Positions 9,691-24,238 of a stretch of DNA of 32,000 nucleotides are shown here, one piece after another. Position 1 is the stretch's first letter; each line of letters opens with the position of its first letter. The notes beneath the pieces are model-generated. The model had not been told where the DNA came from. It worked only from the letters and a program-made list of their open reading frames with translations, and searched no databases. Source of the DNA: an uncultured Erysipelotrichaceae bacterium (GTDB lineage Bacteria > Bacillota_I > Bacilli_A > Erysipelotrichales > Erysipelotrichaceae); the NCBI GenBank assembly GCA_942492995.1, contig OW818653.1, positions 1,740,001 to 1,772,000 of the forward strand, given 5' to 3'. The position numbers and the translations under genes were made by a program.

Positions 9691-9740
9691 AAAATCCTCC
9701 ACTTTTACTATACACTATAATGCGAATAATCTCATAATCA

Positions 9741-9768: not shown

Positions 9769-9802
9769 ACTTGTACAGATTATTAGACTCAGGAGGAACA
9801 AT

Positions 9803-10573
9803 ATGTCTACAGTCTATTCAGAAAAAGAATATCATGTTCAATTAGAAAAGGGAGATGTTGGGGAATACGTTATATTACCTGGCGATCCTGGTCGTTGTGA
9901 GAAGATTGCGCAGTACTTTGATAATCCAGCTCATGTGATGACCAATCGTGAATATGTTACTTATACAGGTACATTAAATGGTGTTAAAGTTAGTGTTACT
10001 TCGACAGGAATTGGCGGACCTTCCGCTGCGATTGCGCTTGAAGAATTGATTCATTGTGGTGCTCATACCTTTATTCGTGTTGGGACATCCGGTGGTATGC
10101 AAGAAGAAGTATTGGGTGGTCATGTCGTTATTGCGACAGGTGCGATTCGATTAGATGGGACAAGCAAAGAATATGCGCCAGTTGAATTTCCTGCAGTAGC
10201 GGATTTTGATGTAGTGTACGCATTACGTGAAGCTGCGAAAGAATTGAACATTCCAAGTCATACAGGTGTTGTTCAATGTAAGGATAATTTCTATGGTCAA
10301 CATTCTCCTGAATCGATGCCTATCGCGTCTGAGTTACATGCGAAATGGGAAGCTTGGATTCGTGCAGGTGCTCTGACTTCAGAGATGGAATCCGCGACGT
10401 TATTTATCGTTGGTTCAACTCGTCGTGTACGTGTAGGGTCTGTATTGTTGGTTGTGGCGAATCAAACACGTCGTGCAATGGGCTTAGAAGATATTCAAGT
10501 TCATGATACAGAAGCTGCGATTCGTGTTGCGATTGATGCGCTTAAAAAATTAATTGAACAAGATAAGAAATAA
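9803..10573 (+). CDS. udp: Uridine phosphorylase (PNP/UDP family)
   Basis: 256 aa and collinear with E. coli Udp as I remember it ([42 protein letters not shown]). ATG is 6 nt after AGGAGG (9791-9796). The ORF-track N-terminal extension overlaps the divergent gene. Confidence 0.85.
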
Positions 10574-10590
10574 TACGTTAATTTAAACCA

Positions 10591-10623
10591 AAGTCCTTAA
10601 GTAAACATTAAGGACTTTTTTTC
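10591..10623 (+). terminator. udp terminator
   Basis: aagtccttaa (10591-10600) pairs with ttaaggactt (10608-10617), followed by a T-run. Confidence 0.7.
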
Positions 10624-10630
10624 TATTCAT

Positions 10631-10658
10631 AAAAAAACAAACATATTTCTATGTTTGT
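10631..10658 (-). terminator. Terminator of MFS permease copy A
   Basis: The minus strand reads acaaacat-agaaat-atgtttgt followed by ttttttt. Confidence 0.65.
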
Positions 10659-10679
10659 CTGATAAATTAGATTTAATTA

Positions 10680-11936
10680 TTATTTCTTTTTAATCATCTT
10701 CGCAAATACGATAACTAACACAACACCGATAAATCCACAGAGTCCACTAACGATGAAGTACGCATTATATCCGCCTTGTGCACCGAATGTGTTCCACAAG
10801 AAGGTATTAGCGATTGGAATCAATACATCTGGTAGATAACCGATGAAGGATACAACACCAATTGCGGTTCCTAGAATGAATGCTTCAAGTTTATAATCAC
10901 CTAAGAGTGACCAATAGGTTCCACGAATCGTATAGAAGAAGATTGCGAGTACGACGACCAATGGGAAGAAGATTGCTTGACCTAAACTAACAGGTAATAG
11001 AGCAGCTAGAATTAAACAACTACTTGCGATAACTAATGCGACAATCTGGACATTTGTACGTCCGAATTTATCTGCGAGTAATCCACCTAAGAATCCACCA
11101 ATTGGACGCATCCATAATACAACGACCATAATTGATGCGACTGTGACTGAACTTAATCCAACGTTGGATTCTAAGAAGCCACCGATATAATATACTGTCC
11201 AGAATACGATATATCCCATGAAGATAATCGCGCCATGTAAGTAAACATATTTATTCTTAAATAACATTCTAACGTATGACCATTGGAATTTATTTGCTTT
11301 ATCATCAACCGCATTCGCTTTAATAATCTTCTTATCATCTTGTACGAAAATCATAACGAGTGCAGAAACAGCTAGTAACATAATCGAATACATATAGATA
11401 ACAGCGATGAGTGCTTCACGTTTTGTGTTTAGATCAATCGAATCTTGTAGGATACCAGAGAAGATGAATAACGCTAAACTTGCAAGAATCGCTTCTACTA
11501 ATCCACGTCCACCATCTAAGATACCAAAGAACTTACCTTGTTCATTATCCGTTCCTAATAAACGAACAATTTTCATATGCGCACTCCAGAACGTAAAGAC
11601 TGAGAAGAAGCCCCACAATCCGAATATTATTACAACATTGTCATAACTTGGGATTTGTGCAAACCATAAGCCACCTAAGCCAGTGAAGAACAATGATACA
11701 GCTAATAATTTCTTAGCAGAGAATAAATCACTAAGGTAACCACTCGGTGCATAACCGAATACGAAGACAAGACCGATAACCGAATACATTGTATTAAGTT
11801 GAGGTAATGTCATATTGAAGACTTGTAACATACTTTCTTGATACCCTTGTTTCAAGAAGATAAGAGGGTAAATAGAACCTGCCGCTAATACTACGAGAAA
11901 TAATTGAAAATACTTTTTAAACTGAGCCTTGTTCAT
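10680..11936 (-). CDS. MFS permease, copy A (paralog of 14720..15994)
   Basis: 12-TM profile. It aligns end to end with the permease at 14720..15994 (50 of the first 70 residues identical by hand count). The start at MNKAQFKKYF follows SD gaaaggaa and matches the paralog N-terminus. The ORF track starts 8 codons earlier (11960) with no SD. Confidence 0.85.
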   Translation of the reverse strand: MNKAQFKKYFQLFLVVLAAGSIYPLIFLKQGYQESMLQVFNMTLPQLNTMYSVIGLVFVFGYAPSGYLSDLFSAKKLLAVSLFFTGLGGLWFAQIPSYDNVVIIFGLWGFFSVFTFWSAHMKIVRLLGTDNEQGKFFGILDGGRGLVEAILASLALFIFSGILQDSIDLNTKREALIAVIYMYSIMLLAVSALVMIFVQDDKKIIKANAVDDKANKFQWSYVRMLFKNKYVYLHGAIIFMGYIVFWTVYYIGGFLESNVGLSSVTVASIMVVVLWMRPIGGFLGGLLADKFGRTNVQIVALVIASSCLILAALLPVSLGQAIFFPLVVVLAIFFYTIRGTYWSLLGDYKLEAFILGTAIGVVSFIGYLPDVLIPIANTFLWNTFGAQGGYNAYFIVSGLCGFIGVVLVIVFAKMIKKK

Positions 11937-12038
11937 TGGTTTCCTTTCGTTATGCGACATGTTGATTATCTATTATTTACGATCGCACTTACTACTATTT
12001 GTATCTAATAATATGAAATATTAGTTACTTTCGTTCTC

Positions 12039-12067
12039 ATCGTAAACGCTTACATTTTTCTTGTCAA
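12039..12067 (-). promoter_or_regulatory. Candidate promoter of permease copy A
   Basis: On the minus strand: TTGACA (12067-12062), 17-nt spacer, TACGAT (12044-12039). Confidence 0.45.
12041..12054. promoter_or_regulatory. cre-like (CcpA) box overlapping the promoter
   Basis: The minus strand reads TGTAAGCGTTTACG, matching 13 of 14 positions of the cre consensus TGWAANCGNTNWCA. It covers the spacer and -10 of the promoter above. Confidence 0.55.
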
Positions 12068-12106
12068 GATAATTTTCTATTATATAGTAAAATAATAGAT
12101 GTAAAC

Positions 12107-12118
12107 GGAAAGTTTTCC
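12107..12118. promoter_or_regulatory. GGAAA-N2-TTTCC inverted repeat (candidate operator, site 2)
   Basis: ggaaagttttcc lies about 45 bp upstream of the copy-A -35 box. It has the same core and spacing as the centre of the 12980-13019 palindrome. Confidence 0.4.
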
Positions 12119-12155
12119 ATTATTTGAGAGAAATATCGATAATTATTGGTTTGAA

Positions 12156-12179
12156 ATAAAAAGTTCCGGGTTGGAACTT
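12156..12179 (-). terminator. rpiR-family gene terminator
   Basis: The minus strand reads aagttcc-aaccc-ggaactt followed by tttatttc, 25 nt after the stop at 12204. Confidence 0.6.
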
Positions 12180-12203
12180 ATAATGTATTATTTTACTAAT
12201 ATA

Positions 12204-12905
12204 TTATCCATGCATCAATTTCTGGATAACTTCTTCTATAAAGATAAAGAAGATTGTACGTGTTTTCTCATGTGGCATAAGATCACTGGATTGATTGTAC
12301 TTGGATAACCAGAATAGATTATCACATGAGTTAACTAATGATGGATTGTACTCTTCAGATACGACTAGGACAGTACATCCTTTTTCTTTTGCGCTAAGGT
12401 AAATATCTTCGAATGATTTAAATGTACCTGTTGTCGTAAAGATAACCAATAGACTCTTATTATCTGCCATGTTCTTAACAGATAGAACATCTTGCATAGC
12501 AATAGAATATTTATTCGTAATAGTATGTAGTTTATATTCGAAATAGGTTGCCGCAATATAGGAAGGTCCATATCCAAATAGAATAATACGTTCATGTTTA
12601 TTAATCATATCAATAAAATCATCCACAATCTTTGGATCGAAGTCATCAATGAATTGTTTAAGTCGTACTAACTCATTTGATTCATACTTATCGTTCGTCG
12701 TTTCGCCATAGAGAAAACTCATGAACTGTTTATAATTCTTAAAACCTAACTTCTTAACTACTTTGGATATTTTCGAGATAGAACATCCACAAAACTCTGC
12801 AGCTTGAGTAATTCTAATGTTTGGGACAGTTAGAACTTTTTCGTTAAGCGTGTTATAGATCTCTTTCTCTAATGGATTCAAATTATTAATATCGATATTT
12901 ATCAT
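12204..12905 (-). CDS. RpiR/MurR-family transcriptional regulator (HTH + SIS domain)
   Basis: 233 aa. The N-terminal HTH is ITQAAEFCGCSISKISKVVKKLGFKNYKQF. The C-terminal SIS-like fold is RIILFGYGPSYIAATYFEYKL...LLVIFTTTG. Confidence 0.85.
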   Translation of the reverse strand: MINIDINNLNPLEKEIYNTLNEKVLTVPNIRITQAAEFCGCSISKISKVVKKLGFKNYKQFMSFLYGETTNDKYESNELVRLKQFIDDFDPKIVDDFIDMINKHERIILFGYGPSYIAATYFEYKLHTITNKYSIAMQDVLSVKNMADNKSLLVIFTTTGTFKSFEDIYLSAKEKGCTVLVVSEEYNPSLVNSCDNLFWLSKYNQSSDLMPHEKTRTIFFIFIEEVIQKLMHG

Positions 12906-12932
12906 GTGTTTTTTCTACTTTTCTCTGTTAAA

Positions 12933-12961
12933 ATTCTATCATTTTACTTACTTTTAGTAAA
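12933..12961 (-). promoter_or_regulatory. Candidate extended -10 promoter of the rpiR-family gene
   Basis: On the minus strand: TTTACT (12961-12956), 17-nt spacer, TGaTAGAAT (12941-12933). Confidence 0.4.
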
Positions 12962-12979
12962 GGTAACATTATTCTTATT

Positions 12980-13019
12980 CATTTACATATAGTGGAAACT
13001 TTTCCACTATATGTAAATG
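12980..13019. promoter_or_regulatory. Perfect 19+19 bp palindrome (candidate operator, site 1) between divergent promoters
   Basis: catttacatatagtggaaa-ct-tttccactatatgtaaatg. All 19 arm positions were checked pairwise as complementary. The centre is GGAAA-N2-TTTCC. Confidence 0.8.
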
Positions 13020-13031
13020 TAAACGCTATGA
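13018..13031. promoter_or_regulatory. cre-like box upstream of the operon promoter
   Basis: TGTAAACGCTATGA matches 13 of 14 cre consensus positions. It is centred about 30 bp upstream of the -35 box. Confidence 0.45.
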
Positions 13032-13055
13032 ATGTAAAATTTCTCGTTTTTTGTG

Positions 13056-13084
13056 TTGACAATTGAATTCTTTGAACATAGAAT
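13056..13084 (+). promoter_or_regulatory. Promoter of the oxidase-etf-kinase operon
   Basis: TTGACA (13056-13061), 17-nt spacer, TAGAAT (13079-13084), about 50 nt before the ATG. Confidence 0.65.
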
Positions 13085-13134
13085 GTGTATGTAAGCATTA
13101 ATGGATTTAATAAAAGCGATATGCGGAGGAAATA

Positions 13135-14607
13135 ATGGAACAAAAAGAATTAATTGAAGGATTGCTTAAAATAGTTGGAATCGACCAAATCAATACAGGT
13201 CATGATGATTTATATGACGCATCAGCGGATCGTTATAAGAAATATGCGAAAGCAAGAAAAGTATTGGATGTACCTCTACCTCTCGCAATCGTTTATCCAG
13301 CGAACACAGAAGAAGTCAGTAAACTATTAGTATTCTGTAACGATAATCTAATCAATGTGATTGCGCGTGGTGGTAAAACTGCGACTGAAGGTGGATTAGA
13401 GAATTGGAAAGAAACGACGATTGTTATTGATACAGAGTTATTAAATAAAGTAATTAAGATTGATGAATACAATATGCAAGCAACTGTTCAAGCAGGTGTT
13501 CGCCTACAAGACCTTGAAGACTTAGTTCGTTTAAAAGGACTAACAACAGGACATTCACCTCAATCAAAACCTGTCGCAAAATACGGTGGGTTAGTCTCAA
13601 CTCGTAGTATCGGACAATTCTCCACATTATATGGTGGAATTGAAGATATGGTAGTTGGACTTGAATGTGTGTTCCCAAATGGACATATCTCACGAATTAA
13701 GAATGTATCAAGAAGAGCTGGCGGACCAGATATCCGTCACATCGCTATAGGGAACGAAGGGACTTTGTGTTATATCACAGAAGTTACCATCAAACTATTC
13801 AAATTCTTCCCTAAGAATCACCAATTCCATGGTTACTTAATTAAAGATGTCGCAAGCGGTATTGAGATCTTGCGTGAAGTTATGGTAAATGGATATCGTC
13901 CTTCAGTTGCCCGCGTATATTCTGAAGAAGATGCGTACCAACATTTCTATCATTTCTATAAAAATAAATGTGTGTTAATTTTTATGGCTGAAGGCAATGA
14001 ACATATCGTGAATGCGACGTCTGTAGGTATTAATGAAGCGATTGAGAAGTTCAAGGATAGTATCGTTGAGAAGGTTGATCCTCAATTGATTCAGAATTGG
14101 TTCAATCACTTAAATTGGTCACAGAAGGATATTGATGATGAGTATGAAGGTATGGTGGAAAATGATTCACATGCTGGATTTACAACAGAAATATCTGCGG
14201 ATTGGGAAACCATTCCAAAGATTTATGACAATGTCATGAATCGTGTCAGAAATGAATTTGATCGTGCACATGATCTAACAATGTTGGGTGGACATTCATC
14301 CCATAGTTATATCAATGGAACAAATATGTACTTTGTGTACAACTATAAGATTAATTGTGAGCCTGAAGATGAAATGCGTATTTATCATCACCCACTTCAA
14401 ACGATTATCGTTGAGGAAACCTTAAAACTAGGTGGATCAATGTGTCATCATCATGGGATTGGTAAGTATCGTAGTCAATGGTCGAAGGAAGAACATGGAT
14501 CAGCGTTCTTTATGTTAGAAAAACTTAAAGAAGCATTTGATCCAAAAGGTATTATGAACTTTGGGACTATTTTCCCTCAAGAAGAAGGTATGAAGTTCAT
14601 TAAGTAA
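13135..14607 (+). CDS. FAD-linked oxidase/dehydrogenase (FAD_binding_4 + C-terminal oxidase domain; AGPS/GlcD-like)
   Basis: 490 aa. The FAD-binding PCMH-type region is VYPANTEEVSKLLVFCNDNLINVIARGGKTATEGG...RAGGPDIRHIAIGNEGTL. The C-terminal CHHHGIGKYR resembles the HHHGVGK of alkyl-DHAP synthase. SD gcggagga precedes the ATG. Confidence 0.85.
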   Translation: MEQKELIEGLLKIVGIDQINTGHDDLYDASADRYKKYAKARKVLDVPLPLAIVYPANTEEVSKLLVFCNDNLINVIARGGKTATEGGLENWKETTIVIDTELLNKVIKIDEYNMQATVQAGVRLQDLEDLVRLKGLTTGHSPQSKPVAKYGGLVSTRSIGQFSTLYGGIEDMVVGLECVFPNGHISRIKNVSRRAGGPDIRHIAIGNEGTLCYITEVTIKLFKFFPKNHQFHGYLIKDVASGIEILREVMVNGYRPSVARVYSEEDAYQHFYHFYKNKCVLIFMAEGNEHIVNATSVGINEAIEKFKDSIVEKVDPQLIQNWFNHLNWSQKDIDDEYEGMVENDSHAGFTTEISADWETIPKIYDNVMNRVRNEFDRAHDLTMLGGHSSHSYINGTNMYFVYNYKINCEPEDEMRIYHHPLQTIIVEETLKLGGSMCHHHGIGKYRSQWSKEEHGSAFFMLEKLKEAFDPKGIMNFGTIFPQEEGMKFIK

Positions 14608-14719
14608 ATTTGTATTATAATTCGCTGATTCATGCATGTACTTTGTTTGCGTAAATAATAGGGGAAAGCGCAAGAATGGTTAGTGATTTAGGCGAGTAAA
14701 TAATAAACAAGGAGGGCCT

Positions 14720-15994
14720 ATGAGCCAGGAAAAATTTAGAAAGTATTTTCAGTTCTTTTTGGTAGTATTAGCTGCGGGATCAATTTATCCGTTGATCTAT
14801 TTGAAGGGTGGCTATCAAGAAACAATCTTGCAAGTCTTCAATATGTCTAATGCTCAACTCAATTCTATGTATACAATTCTAGGTTGGGTATTCGTCTTTG
14901 GTTATATTCCAAGTGGAATCTTGAGTGATCGTTTCTCAGCTAAAAAGTTGTTAGCGATGTCATTATTCTTCACAGGTTTAGGCGGATTATGGTTTGCGCA
15001 AGTTCCTAATTACGAATTTGTCATGGTCATCTTCGCTGTTTGGGGTTTCTTCTCAGTGTTTACGTTCTGGAGTGCTCACATGAAGATCGTCAAATTGTTG
15101 GCGACTGAAAAAGAACAAGGAACATTCTTCGGTATCTTAGATGGTGGTCGTGGCGTTGTCGAAGCATTACTAGCTAGTTTGGCGCTCTTTATCTTCTCTG
15201 GTATCTTAGGCAGTAGCGTTGAAGTTATTGATAAACGTGCAGCTCTTATTGCGGTTATCTACATGTATTCTGCAGTCTTACTAGTTACATCTGTACTTAT
15301 TTGGTTCTTTGTACAAGATGATAAGAAAGTATTAGCACTTGATACAGATAAGAAAGAAGCACTTAAATCTCCTGCTTTCAAATTCTCTGAATTAGGTAAC
15401 TTATTCAAAAACAAAAAAGTATATCTTCTAGGCTTCATAATCTTCATGGGTTATGCAGTGTTCTGGACATACTACTACTTATCATGGTTCTTAGAAGTTT
15501 ACGTTGGTATCGATCCTGTATCAGTTGCTGGTACAATGGTTGTCGTATTATGGATGCGTCCAGTTGGTGGTTTCATTGGTGGTTACTTAGGGGATAAAAT
15601 CGGTAGAACTACAGTTCAAATGATTTCATTAACTGGAGCTGCTGCTTGTTTAATCGCTATCTCTACAATTCCTGTTACAGGTAACACTGGTTTATTCCAA
15701 CCAATTATTATTCTATTAGGTATCTTCTTGTATGCAATTCGTGGTACTTACTGGTCACTATTAGGCGATTTAAAATTAGATGCGTTGATTCTTGGGACTG
15801 CGATTGGGGCTGTTTCCTTCATTGGTTACTTACCTGATATCATTCTTCCTTCATTCAATACATTCTTATGGGCAACGTTTGGTGATATGGGTGGCTTTAA
15901 TGCTTACTTTATCTCTAGTGCAATCTTAGGTATTATTGGTGTAGGTTTAGTCTTCGTTTTCAGAAATATTATTAATAAAGAAAACAAAGCTTAA
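14720..15994 (+). CDS. MFS permease, copy B (paralog of 10680..11936)
   Basis: 424 aa with a 12-TM profile and SD aaggaggg. It shares long identical blocks with copy A (FLVVLAAGSIYPLI, SLFFTGLGGLWFAQ, FFSVFTFWSAHMKIV, IRGTYWSLLGD). Confidence 0.85.
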   Translation: MSQEKFRKYFQFFLVVLAAGSIYPLIYLKGGYQETILQVFNMSNAQLNSMYTILGWVFVFGYIPSGILSDRFSAKKLLAMSLFFTGLGGLWFAQVPNYEFVMVIFAVWGFFSVFTFWSAHMKIVKLLATEKEQGTFFGILDGGRGVVEALLASLALFIFSGILGSSVEVIDKRAALIAVIYMYSAVLLVTSVLIWFFVQDDKKVLALDTDKKEALKSPAFKFSELGNLFKNKKVYLLGFIIFMGYAVFWTYYYLSWFLEVYVGIDPVSVAGTMVVVLWMRPVGGFIGGYLGDKIGRTTVQMISLTGAAACLIAISTIPVTGNTGLFQPIIILLGIFLYAIRGTYWSLLGDLKLDALILGTAIGAVSFIGYLPDIILPSFNTFLWATFGDMGGFNAYFISSAILGIIGVGLVFVFRNIINKENKA

Positions 15995-16011
15995 TATTTA
16001 AGGAAAAAATA

Positions 16012-16803
16012 ATGAAATTAATTTGCTTAGTTAAGTTTGTGCCAGATGTGGATAACTTCAAATATGATTTTGAGAAGAATGTACTTATTCGGGAGAATAC
16101 GGATTTAGTCCTTAACCCGGATGATGCGAAGGCAATTGCGTTCGCGCTCAAAGTGAAAGCGCTTAACCCGGAAATTACGGTTGAAATTTTAAGTATGGGA
16201 CCTAAGAATGTAATTCCAAAGTTAGAAGATCTCTTGCGATTAAAGGTAGATAAAGCAACACTCATCTCAGATTCATTGTATGTAGGTAGTGATACTTACG
16301 TTACAAGTCACATCTTAGCTAAGCATATTAGTTCATTAGATTATGATTGTATACTAACAGGAACGCATTCACTGGATGGTGATACGGCACATGTTCCAAG
16401 TCAAATTGCGGAACTCTTATCGTACCCGCATTTATCCAATGTCGTAGAAGTTAATAATTTTAATTCAACTCTATTTAATGTATGTGTTGATAGTGATAAC
16501 TTTATCGAAACGTATGAAGTGTCTCTGCCAATGGTATTAAGTTTTAGTAAAGAATCGAAGCTTAAATTACCGTATATTAAGTATGAAGATATCAATCGAG
16601 ATGTTAGTAATAAACTACAGATTATCGATAATACGGTATTAAATTTCGATAAGAAACAAGTTGGACTCGAAGGATCACTGACTAAAGTTATCCGTTCGTT
16701 TGTCAAACAGTTTGATAAAAAAGAAAAATTGATTGTACAGTGTGATGAGGAAGGTGTATCAAGCGTATATCGTTTCTTGAAACATTTAGGGTACATCAAA
16801 TGA
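16012..16803 (+). CDS. etfB: Electron transfer flavoprotein, beta (small) subunit
   Basis: 263 aa. It has N-terminal ICLVKFVPD and LNPDDAKAIAFAL, the SLDGDTAHVPSQIAELL segment, and GSLTKV near the C-terminus. Confidence 0.85.
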   Translation: MKLICLVKFVPDVDNFKYDFEKNVLIRENTDLVLNPDDAKAIAFALKVKALNPEITVEILSMGPKNVIPKLEDLLRLKVDKATLISDSLYVGSDTYVTSHILAKHISSLDYDCILTGTHSLDGDTAHVPSQIAELLSYPHLSNVVEVNNFNSTLFNVCVDSDNFIETYEVSLPMVLSFSKESKLKLPYIKYEDINRDVSNKLQIIDNTVLNFDKKQVGLEGSLTKVIRSFVKQFDKKEKLIVQCDEEGVSSVYRFLKHLGYIK

Positions 16804-17741
16804 AACGAGTGTTAATCTACTTTGATTATGAACAGAGTGAGAATTCACTTGAGTTGATTGGGGTTGCGTCACGGATTTATCCGAATGAAGAGATTATCAT
16901 TGATGCGATTAATCAATCAAATAAGAATGAAGAGCTTAATAATAAAGTTAATACAATTATTAATTGTACGTTAGATGCGTATGATTACATTAATATCACA
17001 AAGCTTATAGAAGAAGTTCACGCTAAATATAATTACCAATGTATTTTATTTCCGTCGAGTAAACATGGAAGAATCATTGCGCCAAGAGTTGCGATGCGTC
17101 TTCATTTAGGGTTAGTCGCAGATATTACGGACATTCAGATTAATAATGGGAAGTTAGAGATTATTCGTCCTGCGTATGGTGGGAAGATCATGGCTTCGAT
17201 TGAATGTACAAAAGAAACACTTATGATGAGTGTAAGACAGAATGTGTTTAAGCAGAGTAATTATCCTAATAGAATAAGTAATATCGAGAATATTAAATTA
17301 ATCGATTATGTACCAAATCAAATAAAATTGATTGGCAAAGTAGAAAAAAAAGATTTAGTTCAAGATATTCGCCAAAGTGATGTATTAGTTTCTGGTGGAT
17401 ATGGTATTGTGGAAAACTTTAATCAGATTTATGCACTTGCGGATTTGTTAGATGGACATGTTTCAGCAAGTCGCAAAATCGTTGATCATGGGGTTGTGTC
17501 AAGGAAGATACAGGTAGGACAATCGGGTAAAACAGTGAGTCCAAGGTTGTATATTGCGCTTGGGATAAGTGGATCAACGCAGCATATTGAAGGATTACGA
17601 AATATTGAGACAATTGTCTCTGTGAATTCAGATGAGTATGCACCTCTTAATAGTATTGCGGATGTGGTAGTACTTGGGGATGCGGTGGAGTTTACGAATC
17701 GATTAATCGATAAAATAAAAAAAGAAAGAAAAGGAATATAA
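16800..17741 (+). CDS. etfA: Electron transfer flavoprotein, alpha (large) subunit
   Basis: 313 aa. The C-terminal FAD-binding signature is VGQSGKTVSPRLYIALGISGSTQHIEGL. The start overlaps the etfB stop (ATGA). Confidence 0.85.
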   Translation: MKRVLIYFDYEQSENSLELIGVASRIYPNEEIIIDAINQSNKNEELNNKVNTIINCTLDAYDYINITKLIEEVHAKYNYQCILFPSSKHGRIIAPRVAMRLHLGLVADITDIQINNGKLEIIRPAYGGKIMASIECTKETLMMSVRQNVFKQSNYPNRISNIENIKLIDYVPNQIKLIGKVEKKDLVQDIRQSDVLVSGGYGIVENFNQIYALADLLDGHVSASRKIVDHGVVSRKIQVGQSGKTVSPRLYIALGISGSTQHIEGLRNIETIVSVNSDEYAPLNSIADVVVLGDAVEFTNRLIDKIKKERKGI

Positions 17742-17742
17742 T

Positions 17743-18522
17743 ATGCAACTTACAGATTTCAATATGGATATGTTTTCGCTTAAAGGCAAAAACGCAATCG
17801 TAACAGGTGGGAATAGTGGTTTAGGTCAAGCGTTCTCTACAGCTTTAGCAAAAGCTGGCGCAAACGTAATGGCAGCGAGTCTTATGGATGATGGTGGAGA
17901 AACGCGTAAATTAGTTGAAGATGCTGGTGTTAAATATCATCATACATTTGCGGATATTACGGCAGATGGTGAATGTAAACGTGTAGTGGATGAATGTGTT
18001 AATACGTTTGGTAGTATTGATATTCTTGTTAACTGTGCTGGTATTTGTATCAATATCGAAGATGTGACTCAATTTACACGTAAAGAATGGGACAAAATGG
18101 TTTCAGTTAACTTAACTGCAGCTTTTGAAATGACTCATGAAGCTTGTAAGTATATGATTAAACAAAAGAGTGGAAAAATTGTTAATATCGCTTCATTGTT
18201 CGCGTTCTTAGGTGGACAATGGTCTCCTGCGTATGCAGCTACTAAACACGGTATCGTTGGTTTAACGAAGTCTATGTGTGATGAGTTAGCACAATTCGGC
18301 ATTCAAGTGAACGCTATTGCGCCAGGTTATTTCCAAACTAAGTTAACTGTTAAGACACAAAGCGATCCAGTTCGTAATGGACAAATTCTTGCGCATATTC
18401 CTGCTGGTCGTTGGGGTTATTTAGCTGATTTAATGGGTACTTGTGTATTCCTATCAAGTTCTGCAGCGAATTATGTAAATGGCGCTACGATTGTAGTGGA
18501 TGGCGGTTACTTATTAAGATAA
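17743..18522 (+). CDS. Short-chain dehydrogenase/reductase, KduD/gluconate-5-dehydrogenase-like
   Basis: 259 aa. It has the cofactor motif TGGNSGLGQA, NCAG, and the catalytic Y-x3-K (YAATK). The N-terminus resembles E. coli KduD (FSLKGK.A.VTG...GLGQ). Confidence 0.85.
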   Translation: MQLTDFNMDMFSLKGKNAIVTGGNSGLGQAFSTALAKAGANVMAASLMDDGGETRKLVEDAGVKYHHTFADITADGECKRVVDECVNTFGSIDILVNCAGICINIEDVTQFTRKEWDKMVSVNLTAAFEMTHEACKYMIKQKSGKIVNIASLFAFLGGQWSPAYAATKHGIVGLTKSMCDELAQFGIQVNAIAPGYFQTKLTVKTQSDPVRNGQILAHIPAGRWGYLADLMGTCVFLSSSAANYVNGATIVVDGGYLLR

Positions 18523-18562
18523 TGATGCGTTAAGCATCATTTTTAACTCGGAGGGTTAGCGA

Positions 18563-19990
18563 ATGAATAAATATTTAATTGGGGTTGATAGTGGTTCGCA
18601 AAGCACAAAAGTCTATATCTATGATCAAGATGGAAATGTTGTTTGCGGAGCAAGTGAACCTTTAAAACCGATGATGAGTCGTAAACCTGGTTATGTTGAA
18701 CATCCAGGGGATGACTTATGGGATAGTTTAAAAGTCGTATTAAAAAAATTGATGCATGAATTCAAAGGTGATCCGAAGGACATCGTTGGTTTAGGAATCT
18801 GTTCGATTAGATGTTGTCGAGTATTTATGGATAAAGATGGATCATTGGCTGAACCGATTATGAGTTGGATGGATGTCAGAGCGTATGAAACCTATATTGA
18901 TGATACACGTATCGCATATACAGGTTCTACATCTGGTTATTTAACCTTCAGATTAACGGGTGAAATCAAAGATACTGTTGCGAATGCGTATGATTGGCAG
19001 TTCCCTACGGATTTAGATACCTGGGAATGGTCAAAAGATGATGCTCATTTCAATAAGTTTAATATCCCTAAAGAAAAGCTATTTGAACTTCAACTCCCTG
19101 GCACAATCTTAGGTTATGTCACGACTAAAGCTGCGATTGAGACTGGTTTACCTATTGGTTTACCGATTGTCGCAACTGCGAATGATAAAGCTGTAGAAGC
19201 GCTTGGTTCAGGTTTAATTGAAGCGAATGTTGGTTTAGTGTCATTAGGTACGTATATTACTTCCATGGTATTTGGTGATAAGAATGTTAAGAACTCATCT
19301 AATTTCTTTACGAACTTATCCAACTTACCATACAAATATCTTTATGAGAGTGGTGGTATTCGTCGTGGTATGTGGTTGATTTCTTGGTATAAGAGTATTA
19401 TCGGTGAAGAGTATGCGAAGAAAGCTGAAGCTGAAGGCTTTATGGTAGAAGATTACTTAGCGAAAGAAGCTGAACTCTTATTACCTGGATCTGATGGTTT
19501 ATTTACCATTCCTGATTGGTTAGCTCCTGCAACGCAACTTTATCGTAAAGGTGTGATTCTTGGGTTTGATGAACGTCATACCAGAGGTCATATTTATCGT
19601 TCCCTTTTAGAAGGTATTGCGTTAACGCTTAAGAACAGTTATGACGCAATGTGCAATGAATTAGGTTCTACGCCAACTAAGATTATTGTCTCAGGTGGTG
19701 GATCGAATAGTGACTTGTACATGCAGATTATTGCGGATATCTATGGTGTTCGTACCGTTCGTAATGTCGTGAATGGCGCAGCTTCTTTAGGTGCGGCAAT
19801 CTCAGTAGCGGTTGCGACAGGTGTCTATCATGATTATGAAACAGCAGTTCGTAAGATGATTAAACAACGTGATGAGTTTACTCCAAATATGGCGAATCAT
19901 GACGCGTATAATCGTATAAATGGTGTTTATCGTAAATTGCCTGGTCTATTAGAAGCACCATTAAAAGAAGTTTTTGAAGCACTTAAATAG
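18563..19990 (+). CDS. FGGY-family carbohydrate kinase
   Basis: 475 aa. The N-terminal YLIGVDSGSQSTKVYIYD is the phosphate-1 motif of actin-fold kinases. The C-terminal VSGGGSNSDLYMQIIADIYG is an FGGY signature. SD ggaggg precedes the ATG. Confidence 0.85.
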   Translation: MNKYLIGVDSGSQSTKVYIYDQDGNVVCGASEPLKPMMSRKPGYVEHPGDDLWDSLKVVLKKLMHEFKGDPKDIVGLGICSIRCCRVFMDKDGSLAEPIMSWMDVRAYETYIDDTRIAYTGSTSGYLTFRLTGEIKDTVANAYDWQFPTDLDTWEWSKDDAHFNKFNIPKEKLFELQLPGTILGYVTTKAAIETGLPIGLPIVATANDKAVEALGSGLIEANVGLVSLGTYITSMVFGDKNVKNSSNFFTNLSNLPYKYLYESGGIRRGMWLISWYKSIIGEEYAKKAEAEGFMVEDYLAKEAELLLPGSDGLFTIPDWLAPATQLYRKGVILGFDERHTRGHIYRSLLEGIALTLKNSYDAMCNELGSTPTKIIVSGGGSNSDLYMQIIADIYGVRTVRNVVNGAASLGAAISVAVATGVYHDYETAVRKMIKQRDEFTPNMANHDAYNRINGVYRKLPGLLEAPLKEVFEALK

Positions 19991-19993
19991 TCA

Positions 19994-20785
19994 ATGAAGC
20001 CTTATATTCTATTGACCAATGATGATGGGATTTATTCGCCAGGACTCTTAGCCCTTGCGGAAGTTCTCATTGATATAGCGGATGTGTGTATCGCAGCACC
20101 TATCCACCAACAAACGGGTATGGGGAGATCTTTTCCTAGGGTTCCGGATAATGGAATCATTAAGCAAATTCCTCTCACTTTGAACAATCGAACAATTCTC
20201 GCTTATGGGATTCATGGATCTCCTGCGTTTGTGGTAGCTCATGCGATGTTAGAGTGTGTTGATCGAAAACCTGATCTTTGTATATGTGGAATCAATTATG
20301 GTGAGAATCTTGGTTTATCGCTTACCTGTAGTGGTACGGTTGGGGCTGCGTTTGAAGCCAACAGTCACGGAGTTAATGCGATAGCTTTCTCTAAAGCATT
20401 TGATCTCGATAAACAACACAATGAAGTACTCGAACCAATTAATTGGGATATTGATAAGAAGATTATTCGTAGAATAATTGAACAAATTCTATTATCTGGT
20501 TTCCCTAACGATATATGTCTCTATAATGTGAATTTACCAAAAGTAGTTAATCCTAATACTGGAATCCGTCTAACCAGACAAAGTAGAATGAATTACTCTG
20601 AGTTTGATAAAGTACGTAAGCGCAAATTATTTGAACCTTATCACTTAACGAGTAGTATCTCTCAAGACTTTAGTCATTTAGATAAACATACAGATATTTA
20701 TACTGTTGCGGTAGATAACTTAGTGTCTATAACACCAATACGTTGGGATATATCGATTGATGATTCGATTGAGTTCCCAATGTAA
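19994..20785 (+). CDS. SurE-family 5'/3'-nucleotidase / phosphatase
   Basis: 263 aa. It has ILLTNDDGIYSPGL, CGINYGENLG and SGTVGAAFEA, the three conserved SurE blocks. It starts 3 nt after the kinase stop. Confidence 0.8.
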   Translation: MKPYILLTNDDGIYSPGLLALAEVLIDIADVCIAAPIHQQTGMGRSFPRVPDNGIIKQIPLTLNNRTILAYGIHGSPAFVVAHAMLECVDRKPDLCICGINYGENLGLSLTCSGTVGAAFEANSHGVNAIAFSKAFDLDKQHNEVLEPINWDIDKKIIRRIIEQILLSGFPNDICLYNVNLPKVVNPNTGIRLTRQSRMNYSEFDKVRKRKLFEPYHLTSSISQDFSHLDKHTDIYTVAVDNLVSITPIRWDISIDDSIEFPM

Positions 20786-20790
20786 TTCCG

Positions 20791-20855
20791 GAAAGTGCAT
20801 ATTGAAAAGTCCTTTTAAGTAATTAACTTTAGGGAAGTTTCATAGGCACTTTTTT
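20791..20855 (+). terminator. Probable operon terminator (long interrupted hairpin + T-run)
   Basis: aaagtgcatat (20791-) pairs with ataggcacttt (-20851) with one bulge, followed by ttttttt. The loop is large (about 45 nt) and partly self-paired. Confidence 0.45.
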
Positions 20856-20993
20856 TATCATTATGGGTAATATATTTGTATTTTTAAATCGTTTATTGAT
20901 AAATTTGACTTAATTTATAGAATAATGTAGTTAAATGAAATGTAATAATATTCTTTTATAAACGAAGGATAAAAACGATTTAAAGAGGTAAAA

Positions 20994-21632
20994 ATGAAGA
21001 AATTGGTAATATTTGATATGGACGGATTATTACTTGATACAGAGAAGCTTTATCAAAAATACTGGTTTCAAGTTATTAAAGAAAACAATATTGGAATGAC
21101 AGAAGATGAGTTAAGAACGATTATTGGAATGAGTTTTGATCAAACTAAACAGTTTTTTCTTAAATATTTAAATTCAGAAGATGAATTTTATGAATTTAGA
21201 AAAAGAAGAGAAGTAATTTTTTGGGAAGAGATTGGGAAGTACGGTGTGCCAGCGAAAGAAGGAGCATTTGAAATTCTTAAACACTTAAATCAAAAGAATA
21301 TTCAAACTGCTTTAATTACATCAACCGAAGAGACAAGAGCAAAGAAGTTGTTAGCGTTGGCGGGATTTGAACATAGTTTTGACTACATGGTATTTAGTAA
21401 TATGGTAACAAAAACAAAACCTGATCCTGAAGTTTATCACTTCCTTCAGAAACAAACAGAAATTCCAAAATCAGAATGGTTAGTTTTTGAAGATTCTTAT
21501 AATGGAATAAAGGCTGCGAACAATGCGGATGTTGATGTGATTTGGATTAAAGATTTAGCTGGCTTAAATGATGATAATGTTAGTTATATTTCGTCTTATG
21601 ATTCTTTATTTGAAGTAATTGATACATTGTAA
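20994..21632 (+). CDS. HAD-superfamily phosphatase/phosphomutase (subfamily IA, beta-PGM-like)
   Basis: 212 aa. It has VIFDMDGLLLDTE (motif I DxD), ITSTEE (motif II) and FEDSYNGIKAANNA (motif IV). SD aaagagg precedes the ATG, and it has its own terminator. Confidence 0.85.
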   Translation: MKKLVIFDMDGLLLDTEKLYQKYWFQVIKENNIGMTEDELRTIIGMSFDQTKQFFLKYLNSEDEFYEFRKRREVIFWEEIGKYGVPAKEGAFEILKHLNQKNIQTALITSTEETRAKKLLALAGFEHSFDYMVFSNMVTKTKPDPEVYHFLQKQTEIPKSEWLVFEDSYNGIKAANNADVDVIWIKDLAGLNDDNVSYISSYDSLFEVIDTL

Positions 21633-21641
21633 ATAGATAAC

Positions 21642-21669
21642 AAAGTTTATAAGAAATTATAAACTTTTT
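21642..21669 (+). terminator. HAD gene terminator
   Basis: aaagtttata (21642-21651) pairs with tataaacttt (21658-21667), followed by tt. Confidence 0.7.
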
Positions 21670-21676
21670 AAATGAC

Positions 21677-21714
21677 TGTACAATAGTATACAAATAATTT
21701 GAAATGTATAGACA
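21677..21714. promoter_or_regulatory. Two imperfect GT-N-AC type palindromes (candidate GntR/HutC operators)
   Basis: TGTACAatagTATACA (21677-21692) and TGTATAGACA (21705-21714) lie in the PTS leader. They resemble the GGTnTAnACC-type boxes of HutC-subfamily regulators. The promoter was not located confidently. Confidence 0.3.
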
Positions 21715-21769
21715 AATGAAAAAGTGTGTGATATTGTGTGAGTAGATTTACAAAAAGGTGGAAAATAAT

Positions 21770-22168
21770 TTGAGAAAAATACTAATTTGTACCCATGGTG
21801 AAATGGCTAATGGAATTATAAATTCACTAGAATTAATTGCTGGTGAAGTTAAAAATGTGAAAGCCTTATCGGTAAACATGGAAGATACGATTGAAGAAAT
21901 AAAATCAAGGATTGAAGATTTTATTAACAAATGTTCACCAGAAGATGACAAAGTAATTCTTACTGATATACCAGGTGGAAGTACAACTCAAGCATCATTC
22001 TATTTTATAAGTACTGAAAAGAGAGTGCATGTGTTAACAGGGTTGAATTTAGGGTTATTACTTGAGATATATCTCTCTAGTGAAGAAGATACAAAGACAC
22101 TTCTTACAAATTCATTACAAGCTGGGAAAGAAACGTTGAACTATTTAAATAGTACATACGAACTTTAA
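21770..22168 (+). CDS. PTS mannose/fructose/sorbose family, EIIA component
   Basis: The N-terminus ILICTHGEMANG carries the phospho-His context. I prefer the TTG start at 21770, 8 nt after AGGTGG (21756-21761). The ORF-track GTG at 21758 sits inside the SD. Confidence 0.8.
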   Translation: MRKILICTHGEMANGIINSLELIAGEVKNVKALSVNMEDTIEEIKSRIEDFINKCSPEDDKVILTDIPGGSTTQASFYFISTEKRVHVLTGLNLGLLLEIYLSSEEDTKTLLTNSLQAGKETLNYLNSTYEL

Positions 22169-22190
22169 AAAAAAGAAAGGAGAAAAGAAA

Positions 22191-22676
22191 ATGATCAAAT
22201 TGCTAAGAGTAGATGATCGGTTAATTCATGGTCAAGTTGCGATGGTATGGACGTCGTACCTTCAAGCAAACTTATTAGTAGTTGCAAATAATAAAGCAGC
22301 TACGGACCCTATGACTAAGATGGCTTTAAGTTTAGCTAAGCCTCCAGGAGTAGATTTGGAATTTAAGAGTATACAAGACGCGGTTGTTTACTTAAATGAC
22401 TCTACTTTAGCGAATCGGAAGATTTTTGTAGTTGTAGAAAATACGGATGATGCAAAAGTTCTCTGTGAACATGTAGGAGAAATCAAAAACGTAGTTTTTG
22501 GCGGAATTAGAAAATCTGGAGAGAAGAAAATAATGGATCGACAAGTTTTTCTAGATAAAAAAGATTTAGAGAACTGGCGTTCAATGGTTTCGTACGGGAA
22601 AGAAGTCCAAATTCAAGTTGTTCCTTCAGAGAGAAAAATATCATTATCTGAAGCCGAAGTCATTTTTAATAAGTAA
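22191..22676 (+). CDS. PTS mannose family, EIIB component
   Basis: 161 aa. LLRVDDRLIHGQV is the hallmark EIIB-Man active-site His motif. Confidence 0.9.
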   Translation: MIKLLRVDDRLIHGQVAMVWTSYLQANLLVVANNKAATDPMTKMALSLAKPPGVDLEFKSIQDAVVYLNDSTLANRKIFVVVENTDDAKVLCEHVGEIKNVVFGGIRKSGEKKIMDRQVFLDKKDLENWRSMVSYGKEVQIQVVPSERKISLSEAEVIFNK

Positions 22677-22692
22677 ATAAAGGAGGAAAATT

Positions 22693-23424
22693 ATGATTTA
22701 TTTACAAGCATTTTTGTTAGCGCTGCTTGCTGGGTTTGCTCAATGGGATAGTCGTATTGGTGGTCAAAATATGTTGGATCGTCCAATCGTAACAGGACCA
22801 ATTGTTGGTTTAATACTCGGTGATTTACAAACTGGAATTATAATGGGTGGAACATTAGAACTTGTTTGGATGGGTATCGTAAATATTGGTGGAGCAACTC
22901 CTCCAGATACAGTAACAGGTGGAATACTTGGGACTGCATTCGCGATTTTATCAGGTTTAGATACCGCTACAGCTGTTGCTGTCGCGTTACCAATAGCATT
23001 ATTGGCACAATCATTAGGTATATTTGCTCGAGTTATCAATGCAACATTCAATCACAAAGCTGATGAATATGCAGAAAAAGGTGATTGGAGAGGTATTGAA
23101 AAAATTCTATGGACTGGTGCTGCATTATTCTTTATATTCTCGTTCACACCAGTTTTCTTAGGAGTAGCATTTGGATCAGATGTTGTTGCTAATATCGTAG
23201 CATTCATTCCAGCTAAAATACTTCAAGGTTTAAGAGTTGCGAGTGGATTGTTGCCTGCATTAGGGATGGCAATTTTAATGAGATTTATATTTGATAAGAA
23301 CAGTGCTGCATTCTTATTCTTAGGTTTCGTATTAGCTGCGTTCTTAAACGTAAGTACAATTGGTGTTGCGATTGTTGGGGCTATTGCTGCAGCGTTACAT
23401 TACCAATCGTTAGTGAGTAAATAG
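22693..23424 (+). CDS. PTS mannose family, EIIC component
   Basis: 243 aa and polytopic. It shows typical EIIC-Man blocks (RPIVTGPIVGLILGD, GGTLELVWMG). SD aaaggagg precedes the ATG. Confidence 0.9.
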   Translation: MIYLQAFLLALLAGFAQWDSRIGGQNMLDRPIVTGPIVGLILGDLQTGIIMGGTLELVWMGIVNIGGATPPDTVTGGILGTAFAILSGLDTATAVAVALPIALLAQSLGIFARVINATFNHKADEYAEKGDWRGIEKILWTGAALFFIFSFTPVFLGVAFGSDVVANIVAFIPAKILQGLRVASGLLPALGMAILMRFIFDKNSAAFLFLGFVLAAFLNVSTIGVAIVGAIAAALHYQSLVSK

Positions 23425-23433
23425 GAGAATAAT

Positions 23434-24237
23434 ATGAGCAATAAAATTGAAAGAAAAGATTTGATGAAAGTATTCTGGCGTTCGCTAGCGTTACAAGGTT
23501 GTTTCAACTATGAACGTATGCAAGCCATTGGTTACGCATATGCTATGATTCCCGTTCTTCGTAAACTTTACCCAACTGAAGCTGGAATGTCTGAAGCACT
23601 TAAAAGACATGTTGGTTTCTTTAATACATCACCACAAACAGTTTCCTTTATTTATGGAGCAACAATTGCGTTAGAAGAACAAAATGCCACTACTGAAAAC
23701 TTCGACACAGACGCAATTAACTCTATTAAAGCTGCCTTAATGGGGCCTTTAGCGGGTATTGGGGATTCATTCTTCTGGGGTACATTTAGAATTATTGGAG
23801 CAGGTGTTGGAGCATCATTAGCAATTACAGGTAATATTTTAGGGGCCATTCTATTTATATTAATCTACAATGTTCCACATTATCTACTACGCTATAATGG
23901 ACTGTTTATTGGTTACAATAGCGGTGTATCCTTCTTACAAAATGCATTCGCATCCGGCACAATTGAAAAATTAACTGGAGCTGCTAAAGTTATGGGATCT
24001 GTTGTGGTAGGTGCATTGATTGCATCTATGGTTAGAATTAGTACACCATTTGTTTTAACTCTTGGTGAAACTACACTAGAAGTTCAAACAATTTTTGATG
24101 GTATTATGCCAAAATTACTACCTTTAGGCTTAACATTCTTAATCTTTGGATTAGTAAGAAAAGGTTATAAGACTACAACATTGATGTTAATTTTATTAGT
24201 AGTTGGTATTGCAGGTGTCTATTTAGGAATTCTATAA
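23434..24237 (+). CDS. PTS mannose family, EIID component
   Basis: 267 aa. FWRSLALQGCFNYERMQAIGYAYAMIP and FFNTSPQ are typical EIID-Man N-terminal blocks. Confidence 0.9.
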   Translation: MSNKIERKDLMKVFWRSLALQGCFNYERMQAIGYAYAMIPVLRKLYPTEAGMSEALKRHVGFFNTSPQTVSFIYGATIALEEQNATTENFDTDAINSIKAALMGPLAGIGDSFFWGTFRIIGAGVGASLAITGNILGAILFILIYNVPHYLLRYNGLFIGYNSGVSFLQNAFASGTIEKLTGAAKVMGSVVVGALIASMVRISTPFVLTLGETTLEVQTIFDGIMPKLLPLGLTFLIFGLVRKGYKTTTLMLILLVVGIAGVYLGIL

Positions 24238-24238
24238 T

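Follow-up and report, generated by a model that had tools for sequence, protein, structure and literature searches.

A 32,000-nucleotide stretch of DNA from an uncultured Erysipelotrichaceae bacterium (NCBI GenBank assembly GCA_942492995.1, contig OW818653.1, positions 1,740,001 to 1,772,000 of the forward strand), referred to here as the window, carries at positions 13135-20785 an operon for a flavin adenine dinucleotide (FAD)-linked oxidoreductase, a short-chain dehydrogenase/reductase (SDR) and an FGGY-family kinase together with the two subunits of an electron transfer flavoprotein (Etf). This operon is an Etf-coupled dehydrogenase system of the VAO/GlcD superfamily, comparable to the lactate dehydrogenase-Etf complex (Ldh-Etf), combined with polyol-type kinase and SDR steps. 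On the sequence evidence, it is the anaerobe counterpart of ygcW-ygcU-ygcS-ygcR-ygcQ plus yqcE-ygcE of Escherichia coli K-12. With moderate confidence, we propose that it is a catabolic operon of the YgcU/YgcW/YgcE type that is controlled by an RpiR regulator, acts on a glycerol-like compound and passes electrons to EtfAB. Far less confidence attaches to the order of the steps and to the kind of substrate than to this overall scheme.

The window proteins were assigned by profile search against Pfam and NCBIfam. The first gene of the operon (13135-14607) is preceded by a GGAGG ribosome-binding site (13125-13129) and encodes the FAD-linked oxidoreductase, an ortholog of YgcU with FAD_binding_4 and FAD-oxidase_C domains that resembles alkylglycerone phosphate synthase (AGPS); it is called the oxidase below. 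It is followed by genes for a major facilitator superfamily (MFS) permease (14720-15994; MFS_1, plus weak ACS, OPA and lactate-MCT subfamily matches), the small subunit EtfB (16012-16803; ETF domain, beta), the large subunit EtfA of 313 amino acids (16800-17741; ETF and ETF_alpha), a KduD/IdnO-like SDR orthologous to YgcW (17743-18522; adh_short; its top match, KduD, falls short of the cut-off), a class A FGGY-family kinase homologous to YgcE (18563-19990; FGGY_N and FGGY_C) and a SurE-family phosphatase (19994-20785; SurE, above the TIGR00087 cut-off). In the list of open reading frames (ORFs), all seven genes lie on the plus strand in one direction, at the same coordinates as in the initial annotation of this DNA, and the intergenic gaps down the operon are 112, 17, −4 (an ATGA overlap of etfB and etfA), 1, 40 and 3 nucleotides.

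A σ70-type promoter-like site, TTGACA-17-TAGAAT, was found at 13056-13084 on the plus strand. It matches the consensus at 11 of 12 positions and is the top-scoring site within 10400-21800, a region in which promoter-like sites as a class are not enriched (44 seen versus 53 expected). Downstream of surE, an intrinsic terminator consisting of a long hairpin and a U-run was located at 20790-20861 on the plus strand by RNA folding. The hairpin (20790-20854) has a folding energy of −21.5 kcal/mol (z = −4.5, equalled by none of 200 shuffled sequences) and is followed by UUUUUUU; a simple terminator scanner did not pick it up. No significant RNA structure was found in the 112-nucleotide gap between the oxidase and MFS genes (z = −0.46), and an Rfam scan gave no match inside the operon. 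The ORF list, the promoter scan and RNA folding thus bear out the initial description of seven co-oriented genes with a promoter, tight junctions and a terminal hairpin plus T-run, and the seven genes form a genuine operon.

Species-representative genomes were scanned with the window oxidase, and 274 relatives were confirmed, the best 80 of which were kept as sampled loci for all counts given below. The sampled loci belong to Erysipelotrichaceae, Clostridia, Spirochaetota, Chloroflexota and Desulfobacterota, and thus to the phyla Bacillota, Spirochaetota, Chloroflexota and Desulfobacterota. Related clusters were also found in Fusobacteriota, Pseudomonadota and Actinomycetota. Co-occurrence was counted in the 55 loci with at least 6.5 kb of sequence downstream of the oxidase gene, and genes for EtfB, EtfA, the SDR and the FGGY kinase stand beside that of the oxidase in 55 of 55. 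The oxidase, the SDR, the FGGY kinase and a dedicated EtfBA therefore form a conserved unit in anaerobes, in agreement with the single functional unit assumed at the outset. Clustering of the neighbouring ORFs revealed no conserved aldolase, isomerase, epimerase or other catabolic enzyme in the 80 loci, so that the lack of the first three, already remarked on for the window, extends to its relatives. The other recurrent neighbours are transporters, SurE and, in seven loci, an FAD_binding_2 protein, and nothing else; in loci where no transporter was recognised, the genes after the kinase are heterogeneous and share no theme apart from one more phosphatase.

The identity to the window proteins in the 80 loci is 74-91% for the oxidase over four phyla, 39-59% for EtfB and 37-50% for EtfA. 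The closest oxidase, 91% identical, is that of an Erysipelothrix sp. metagenome-assembled genome, and the oxidases of Fusobacteriota, Bacilli, Vibrio, Streptomyces and E. coli are still 56-75% identical. A constrained oxidase, a faster-drifting Etf and the existence of two kinase classes, described below, suggest horizontal spread with exchangeable partners. True oxidase orthologs were also found in 30 records of a plasmid collection that includes a few mislabelled chromosomes. Matches on rhizobial plasmids were set aside as distant GlcD-type proteins.

Over their full lengths, the oxidase, the SDR and the kinase are 56%, 60% and 47% identical to YgcU, YgcW and YgcE of E. coli, respectively. 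The E. coli genes are arranged as ygcE (FGGY kinase)-yqcE (MFS), ygcW (SDR)-ygcU-ygcS (MFS)-ygcR (EtfB)-ygcQ (EtfA), and ygcP (GlpP-like)-ygcO-ygcN (FixX/FixC-like). A protein search of all complete E. coli genomes found ygcU in 4963 of 5426. YgcN/YgcO- and YgcP-like genes do not occur in the window and do not recur among the 80 loci. The initial annotation had regarded the gene combination as unknown; the arrangement itself has long been annotated in E. coli as the ygc cluster, and no function has been assigned to it there. The view of the system as uncharacterised was upheld, since no characterised ortholog was found in the searchable full-text literature, which yielded no functional study of ygcU, ygcW or ygcE and none of an AGPS-like oxidase with Etf. 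A paper from 2026 still names YgcU an FAD-binding oxidoreductase without an assigned function. On the other hand, yqcE-ygcE is on a list of CRP-activated E. coli operons (PMC8085971), which points to catabolism.

In a search of Protein Data Bank (PDB) sequences, the best solved relative of the oxidase was AGPS, with 164 bits across both the FAD and cap domains. LctD reached 83 bits and aligned over the FAD domain only (oxidase residues 49-223), and D-lactate dehydrogenase (D-LDH) and D-2-hydroxyglutarate dehydrogenase likewise aligned over the FAD domain only, at no more than 83 bits. The C-terminal CHHHGIGK of the oxidase was aligned to SHHHGVGK of AGPS, which confirms the AGPS-like HHHGIGK C-terminus noted at first, and residues R260, Y399 and H438-440 correspond to R419, Y578 and H615-617 of AGPS. 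All five are unchanged throughout an alignment of 86 family members that includes proteins of E. coli, Vibrio, Streptomyces, Bacillus, Enterococcus and Ilyobacter. AGPS is an ether-lipid synthase that uses a rare covalent flavin chemistry. Its N-terminal 160-200 residues or so are missing from the oxidase, where residue 46 aligns to AGPS residue 203 (490 versus 658 amino acids). Judged from these alignments, the oxidase is AGPS-like in its catalytic residues yet, because the N-terminal residues are missing, not an AGPS proper.

The top NCBIfam match of the oxidase is GlcD, with 136 bits, far under the cut-off of 568. GlcD-type enzymes have a GEHG motif and a metal site made up of His, His and Glu-His. 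The oxidase has HHHG in place of GEHG, and a conserved Tyr stands at the position of the second metal-binding His of GlcD. An AlphaFold2 model of the oxidase, built from a shallow alignment, had a low pLDDT (predicted local distance difference test) of 63; with this model, Foldseek ranked AGPS first and D-LDHs near it (template modelling scores of 0.66 versus 0.61), which does not discriminate between the two.

The EtfB of the window scored 82-105 bits against five bifurcating Etf beta subunits (CarD, CdEtfB, LctB, AfeEtfB and 7koe_A), compared with 39, 25 and 21 bits against canonical ones. The top four solved matches of EtfA are EtfA subunits of bifurcating Etfs, with 131-143 bits. At 313 amino acids, EtfA is without an N-terminal ferredoxin domain; LctC has 418 amino acids. 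The EtfBA of the window thus resembles the bifurcating (group 2) Etfs. A dedicated Etf is encoded in the cluster in anaerobes and also in Enterococcus. In contrast, Vibrio pelagius, two Streptomyces, Bacillus thuringiensis and Priestia megaterium keep the trio of SDR, oxidase and kinase without Etf in the cluster, so that Etf is not a universal part of the cluster, being absent from it in these aerobic or facultative relatives. Such a distribution would be expected if the flavoenzyme were a true dehydrogenase and its electron acceptor had been fitted to the way of life of each lineage. It is the main reason why a redox role of the flavoenzyme is preferred over an AGPS-like redox-neutral exchange.

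The SDR scored below the cut-offs of both KduD models, NF005390 (315.5 bits; cut-off 369) and TIGR01832 (281.1 bits; cut-off 338.85). KduD and gluconate 5-dehydrogenase, the families nearest to the SDR, oxidise the CHOH that adjoins a terminal CH2OH. The kinase likewise reached no equivalog cut-off. Its best match was XylB (175.9 bits; cut-off 380.25), and the GlpK, LsrK, GntK, AraB, FucK and RhaB models all scored below XylB and under their cut-offs, those for GlpK at about 120 bits. No close solved structure of the kinase was found in the PDB, where the best match reached 108 bits. Two classes can be distinguished among the FGGY kinases of the related loci, one about 70% and the other about 46% identical to the window kinase, which belongs to class A.

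SurE scored 150.6 bits with TIGR00087 (cut-off 135.1). A surE gene was found in 18 of the 80 loci, namely in 17 of the 31 loci with a class A kinase and in one of the 31 with class B. SurE, which the initial annotation had listed among the genes of the system, is therefore an accessory of one sub-variant, tied to one kinase subclass, and stands outside the conserved core. A HAD_2 phosphatase gene (20994-21632, plus strand) lies past the operon terminator of the window and has its own promoter-like site (20896-20923), and a His_Phos_1 phosphatase gene directly follows the kinase gene in one related locus (L039:15796-16443). Three unrelated phosphatase families, SurE, HAD_2 and His_Phos_1, were thus observed at the same position in different genomes.

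A divergent gene for an RpiR/MurR-type regulator with HTH_6 and SIS domains lies upstream of the operon (12204-12905, minus strand). The SIS domain scored 37.7 bits (cut-off 25), and HTH_6 scored 26.6 bits, slightly under its cut-off of 28.3. An rpiR homolog adjoins the oxidase gene in 62 of the 72 loci that have upstream sequence. Between the promoters of rpiR and the operon lies a palindrome (12978-13021) whose arms each contain 20 paired bases and which holds the operator core GGAAACTTTTCC (GGAAA-N2-TTTCC) at 12994-13005. GGAAA-N2-TTTCC occurs no more than 400 bp upstream of the oxidase gene in 53 of 77 loci, compared with eight matches in the other 1.23 Mb. Within the 32-kb window, GGAAA-N1-4-TTTCC occurs only twice, in this core and in the copy GGAAAGTTTTCC at 12107-12118. 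GGAAA-N2-TTTCC is thus a conserved operator, presumably that of RpiR, to which binding is predicted.

The operator copy GGAAAGTTTTCC stands 5' of a gene for a second MFS permease (10680-11960, minus strand; MFS_1), a paralog that is 65% identical to the operon permease, and just upstream of the promoter-like site of that gene (12067-12039). Because of this position, the second permease probably belongs to the regulon of the operon. The same layout, with the MFS and rpiR genes in one direction and the oxidase gene in the other, is seen in six Erysipelotrichaceae loci. In E. coli, Enterococcus gilvus, Enterococcus raffinosus and Streptomyces clavuligerus, the place of the regulator is taken by a GlpP-like antiterminator. 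The SIS domains of RpiR regulators are sensors of the phosphosugar type. Since the regulators are either RpiR/SIS or GlpP-like proteins, the inducer is probably a small phosphate ester like glycerol-3-phosphate, most simply the product of the kinase.

The transporters of the 80 loci give clues to the substrate. By locus, MFS permeases were found in 50, BCCT carriers in 22, ATP-binding cassette (ABC) systems of the OsmF/OpuC type in at least 11 and ABC systems of the Opp type in about 8. BCCT or OpuC-type systems are encoded in or beside the cluster in Erysipelotrichaceae, Clostridia, Spirochaetota, Enterococcus and Vibrio, and the substrate-binding protein of Enterococcus scored 322 bits against OpuCC of B. 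subtilis, the glycine betaine/carnitine/choline-binding protein. Because BCCT and OpuC/OsmF transporters recur, a cationic, quaternary-ammonium-like group on the substrate is suggested, and thus a glycerol-like compound with such a group rather than a plain sugar. This argues against the plain polyol, sugar or sugar acid that had been proposed from the window.

Several candidate substrates were set aside. Carnitine lacks the primary hydroxyl on which an FGGY kinase could act, and neither CoA-dependent nor BKACE enzymes are present. For glycerophosphocholine, simple diesterases of the GlpQ type suffice for cleavage, which makes an ATP-using route of three enzymes unlikely. Dihydroxypropanesulfonate (DHPS) is anionic, at odds with BCCT or OpuC transporters, and tetritols and pentitols would need isomerases, none of which is conserved.

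Other neighbours vary with lineage. In Vibrio and Priestia, the trio is adjoined by an aspartase/fumarase-like lyase and an aldehyde dehydrogenase resembling betaine aldehyde and succinate semialdehyde dehydrogenases (L084:14258-17148 and L087:1-2674), and in one Streptomyces an aldehyde dehydrogenase gene lies immediately 5' of the trio without the lyase (L085:6599-8068). IclR or LysR regulators and YgcS-like MFS permeases accompany the trios of aerobes. Aerobes may be able to use another fragment of the substrate as well. In Spirochaetes and Clostridia, a flavocytochrome-c/fumarate-reductase-like protein of the FAD_binding_2 family (TIGR01813, 360 bits) is encoded in or adjoining an ABC operon of the OsmF/Opu type by the cluster (L010:18186-19523, L011, L013, L030, L038 and L046; in L014, upstream of rpiR). 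This protein may be a reductase of the enoate type whose substrate is the same compound or one derived from it.

In the scheme that we propose, the imported compound would be small, would have one end resembling glycerol (a vicinal diol) and in many lineages would probably bear a cationic or betaine-like group. Like KduD and gluconate 5-dehydrogenase, the SDR would oxidise the penultimate CHOH, and the FGGY kinase would phosphorylate the terminal CH2OH to give a ketol phosphate like dihydroxyacetone phosphate (DHAP) or an intermediate like glycerol-3-phosphate. The chain of SDR, kinase and flavoenzyme is inferred because an SDR-made ketol end suits FGGY kinases and resembles DHAP, the core of the AGPS substrate. 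The initial proposals on the order of the steps and on Etf as the driver of an unfavourable oxidation are reasonable. The phosphate made in the kinase step would be the inducer bound by the SIS domain of RpiR, and in E. coli, Enterococcus and Streptomyces it would be sensed by the GlpP-like antiterminator. The AGPS-like flavoenzyme would then enolise the ketol phosphate by means of its Tyr, HHH and Arg residues and oxidise or cleave it at the carbon adjoining the ketone. Two electrons would pass to the bifurcating-type EtfAB and from there to NAD+, possibly together with reduced ferredoxin as in Ldh-Etf; elsewhere the sink would be quinone via YgcNO in E. coli and housekeeping acceptors in aerobes. 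The carbon would end as a compound at the triose phosphate level that enters glycolysis, so that no aldolase or isomerase would be needed, and SurE would be an optional phosphatase for a phosphorylated by-product or intermediate.

A bolder form of this scheme, which we consider unlikely, is that the three enzymes carry out an oxygen-independent cleavage of non-hydrolysable glyceryl ether or glyceryl ammonium bonds, with the chemistry of AGPS reversed. The kinase and the SDR would turn a 1-substituted glycerol, such as the deacylated head group of a betaine lipid (glyceryl-trimethylhomoserine) or an amino- or ammonio-propanediol, into a 1-substituted DHAP. The flavoenzyme would enolise this compound, trap it on the flavin N5 and expel the substituent, giving triose phosphate and electrons for Etf.

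Several points weigh against the proposed catabolic scheme. AGPS is redox-neutral overall, and the conserved residues are consequently no proof of a dehydrogenase. Betaine-type transporters are absent from the window and from E. coli, both of which have MFS permeases only, and could serve another purpose. A phosphatase in the operon (SurE, or His_Phos_1 in L039) fits poorly with a glycolytic phosphate ester as the product. The bifurcating nature of the Etf is deduced from similarity scores, and the order of SDR, kinase and flavoenzyme is drawn from the behaviour of related enzymes.

Among other explanations, it is possible, if doubtful, that the FGGY kinase phosphorylates a plain polyol or ketose, such as glycerol or a tetritol, and that the flavoenzyme then oxidises a secondary alcohol with Etf as the acceptor, like glycerol-3-phosphate dehydrogenase or EryB of Brucella, while the SDR feeds in or interconverts a related substrate and no leaving group is involved. 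The GlpP-like antiterminators, which respond to glycerol-3-phosphate, and the SIS regulators that go with the cluster would fit this route, as would the FGGY family itself, which includes glycerol and erythritol kinases and whose GlpK models score about 120 bits with the window kinase. The transporters of E. coli are MFS permeases rather than betaine types, and, as a matter of general knowledge, the potential of DHAP/glycerol-3-phosphate is close to that of pyruvate/lactate, so that a confurcation like that of Ldh-Etf would be sensible with a bifurcating-type EtfB. However, the BCCT and OpuC/OsmF transporters of several phyla would be left without an explanation, the role of the SDR would remain vague, and the strictly kept AGPS-type enolisation residues are unlike those of an alcohol dehydrogenase with GlcD-type hydride transfer. 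Glycerol usually enters by GlpF-type channels, none of which is present, and tetritol or pentitol routes need isomerases or epimerases, none of which is conserved. A quite unlikely alternative reverses the electron flow: Etf would take the electrons of SDR-made NADH to the flavoenzyme for the reductive removal of a leaving group adjoining the ketone, in a redox-balanced and possibly energy-conserving process resembling Bcd-Etf, CarCDE and FixABCX/CaiA of E. coli. EtfB and EtfA are indeed nearest to the reductive bifurcating complexes CarD/E and Bcd-Etf of Clostridioides difficile, the E. coli cluster is paired with the FixC/FixX-like YgcN/YgcO, and an NADH-making SDR beside an NADH-using Etf would provide redox balance. 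Nevertheless, the aerobic relatives without cluster Etf are easier to reconcile with a dehydrogenase able to use other acceptors, and an acetol-phosphate-like product is not a central metabolite, nor is an enzyme using it conserved.

Two further explanations keep closer to characterised relatives of the oxidase. A redox-neutral exchange of the AGPS type at C1 of a DHAP derivative, possibly biosynthetic, in which Etf only keeps the flavin oxidised and an ether-linked solute or lipid precursor is made or remodelled, appears very unlikely to us. Such an exchange would agree with the invariance of every AGPS catalytic residue and with the rank of AGPS as the best solved relative by sequence and, in a poor model, marginally by fold; a kinase, a ketoreductase-type SDR and a phosphatase could also run a sequence of making DHAP, exchange, reduction and dephosphorylation. 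On the other hand, the N-terminal 160-200 residues or so of AGPS are missing, no lipid-synthesis genes were found near the 80 loci, and the CRP activation, the substrate-responsive regulators and the importers indicate catabolism. The tight co-conservation of Etf in anaerobes and the Etf-quinone oxidoreductase-like pair in E. coli argue for real electron flow. A 2-hydroxy-acid (lactate or glycolate) dehydrogenase-Etf of the Lct type with its permease, lying beside unrelated sugar genes, is extremely improbable. GlcD is the top NCBIfam match, even if far under its cut-off, LctB, LctC and LctD are all detectable relatives, and the MFS permease weakly matches the lactate MCT model. These similarities are outweighed by the alignment of LctD/GlcD types over the FAD domain alone where AGPS aligns over both domains, a difference that also upholds the initial view that the oxidase is not of the lactate/glycolate dehydrogenase type. 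Furthermore, the oxidase has HHHG instead of GEHG and Tyr at the position of the second metal-binding His, EtfA is without the ferredoxin domain of LctC (313 versus 418 amino acids), all 55 loci with sufficient downstream sequence contain the SDR and the kinase, and neither a lactate racemase nor an LctP-type permease was found in the 80 loci.

Elsewhere in the window, a cobalamin riboswitch (RF00174, 98.6 bits; 3024-3194, plus strand) lies directly 5' of nrdD and nrdG (3182-5518 and 5493-6005), which suggests that the class III ribonucleotide reductase is under B12-dependent control. Genes for the IIA, IIB, IIC and IID components of a mannose-family phosphotransferase system, followed by those for a double-SIS protein and a GntR/UTRA regulator, occupy 21758-26103 on the plus strand; this operon looks like one of the amino-sugar or fructosamine type and unrelated to the Etf operon. 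A uridine phosphorylase ORF (9650-10573, plus strand) has a GTG start and a 53-nucleotide overlap with a convergent DUF805 ORF (9193-9702, minus strand). Because the profile match begins only at residue 60, its true start is probably further downstream. In addition, a gamma-glutamyltranspeptidase gene is followed by two tandem half genes of the chromate-transporter family at 26569-29255 on the plus strand, an unusual pairing.

The three enzymes have been conserved as a set in seven or more bacterial phyla and in nearly every E. coli genome. Identification of the substrate would fill a gap among the uncharacterised genes of E. coli and would probably bring a new flavin reaction to light. The conserved operator and the regulators are direct handles for finding the inducer. 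If the clue from the betaine transporters is right, guts and sediments would harbour a so far unrecognised route by which a cationic glycerol-like compound is degraded. The cleavage of glyceryl ether or ammonium bonds, if true, would add both a new reaction to enzymology and a new fate to those of betaine or ether head groups, which are abundant. The conserved E. coli cluster would then have a function, and eukaryotic AGPS a bacterial ancestor-like activity.

The system can be compared with several known ones. In the erythritol pathway of Brucella, the FGGY kinase EryA acts first and the flavoenzyme EryB then acts on the polyol phosphate. EryB has a GlpD-type fold, in contrast to the FAD_binding_4 domain of the window oxidase, and the Ery route needs isomerases and a racemase, none of which is conserved with the window cluster. 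In the cai/fixABCX system of E. coli, the Etf FixAB works with FixCX on a quaternary ammonium compound taken up via a BCCT carrier, and BCCT and OpuC transporters recur by the cluster described here. However, no CoA transferase or ligase and no enzyme of the acyl-CoA dehydrogenase type is conserved in the 80 loci, and the chemistry is unrelated.

The likeness to AGPS (EC 2.5.1.26; PDB 4bby and 2uuu) lies in the flavoenzyme, since both domains align and the catalytic Arg419, Tyr578 and His615-617 are kept. Both enzymes probably handle a DHAP-like ketol phosphate. The window protein is without the N-terminal domain that helps to form the lipid tunnel of AGPS, and its gene stands in a catabolic operon with Etf, kinase, SDR and importers. 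Whereas AGPS is redox-neutral and acts on long-chain lipids, the window oxidase most likely passes electrons on and has a substrate that is small and soluble.

LctBCD of Acetobacterium woodii (PDB 7qh2) is likewise encoded in an operon of an anaerobe that joins a flavoenzyme of the VAO/GlcD superfamily to EtfBA of the bifurcating type and a permease, and is the likely model for the exit of electrons from the oxidase. The catalytic domain of the window protein is not LctD-like, as only the FAD domain aligns (83 bits), the window EtfA is without the ferredoxin domain, and its companions are an SDR and an FGGY kinase, not a racemase. The ygc cluster of E. coli differs from the window operon in adding the FixC/FixX-like YgcN/YgcO, in having the GlpP-like antiterminator YgcP in place of RpiR, in being without SurE and in its gene order. 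Its Etf is very divergent, with EtfA 28% identical and EtfB giving no match at E ≤ 1e-5. Nevertheless, the same three enzymes, an EtfBA pair and MFS permeases are brought together in one cluster in both.

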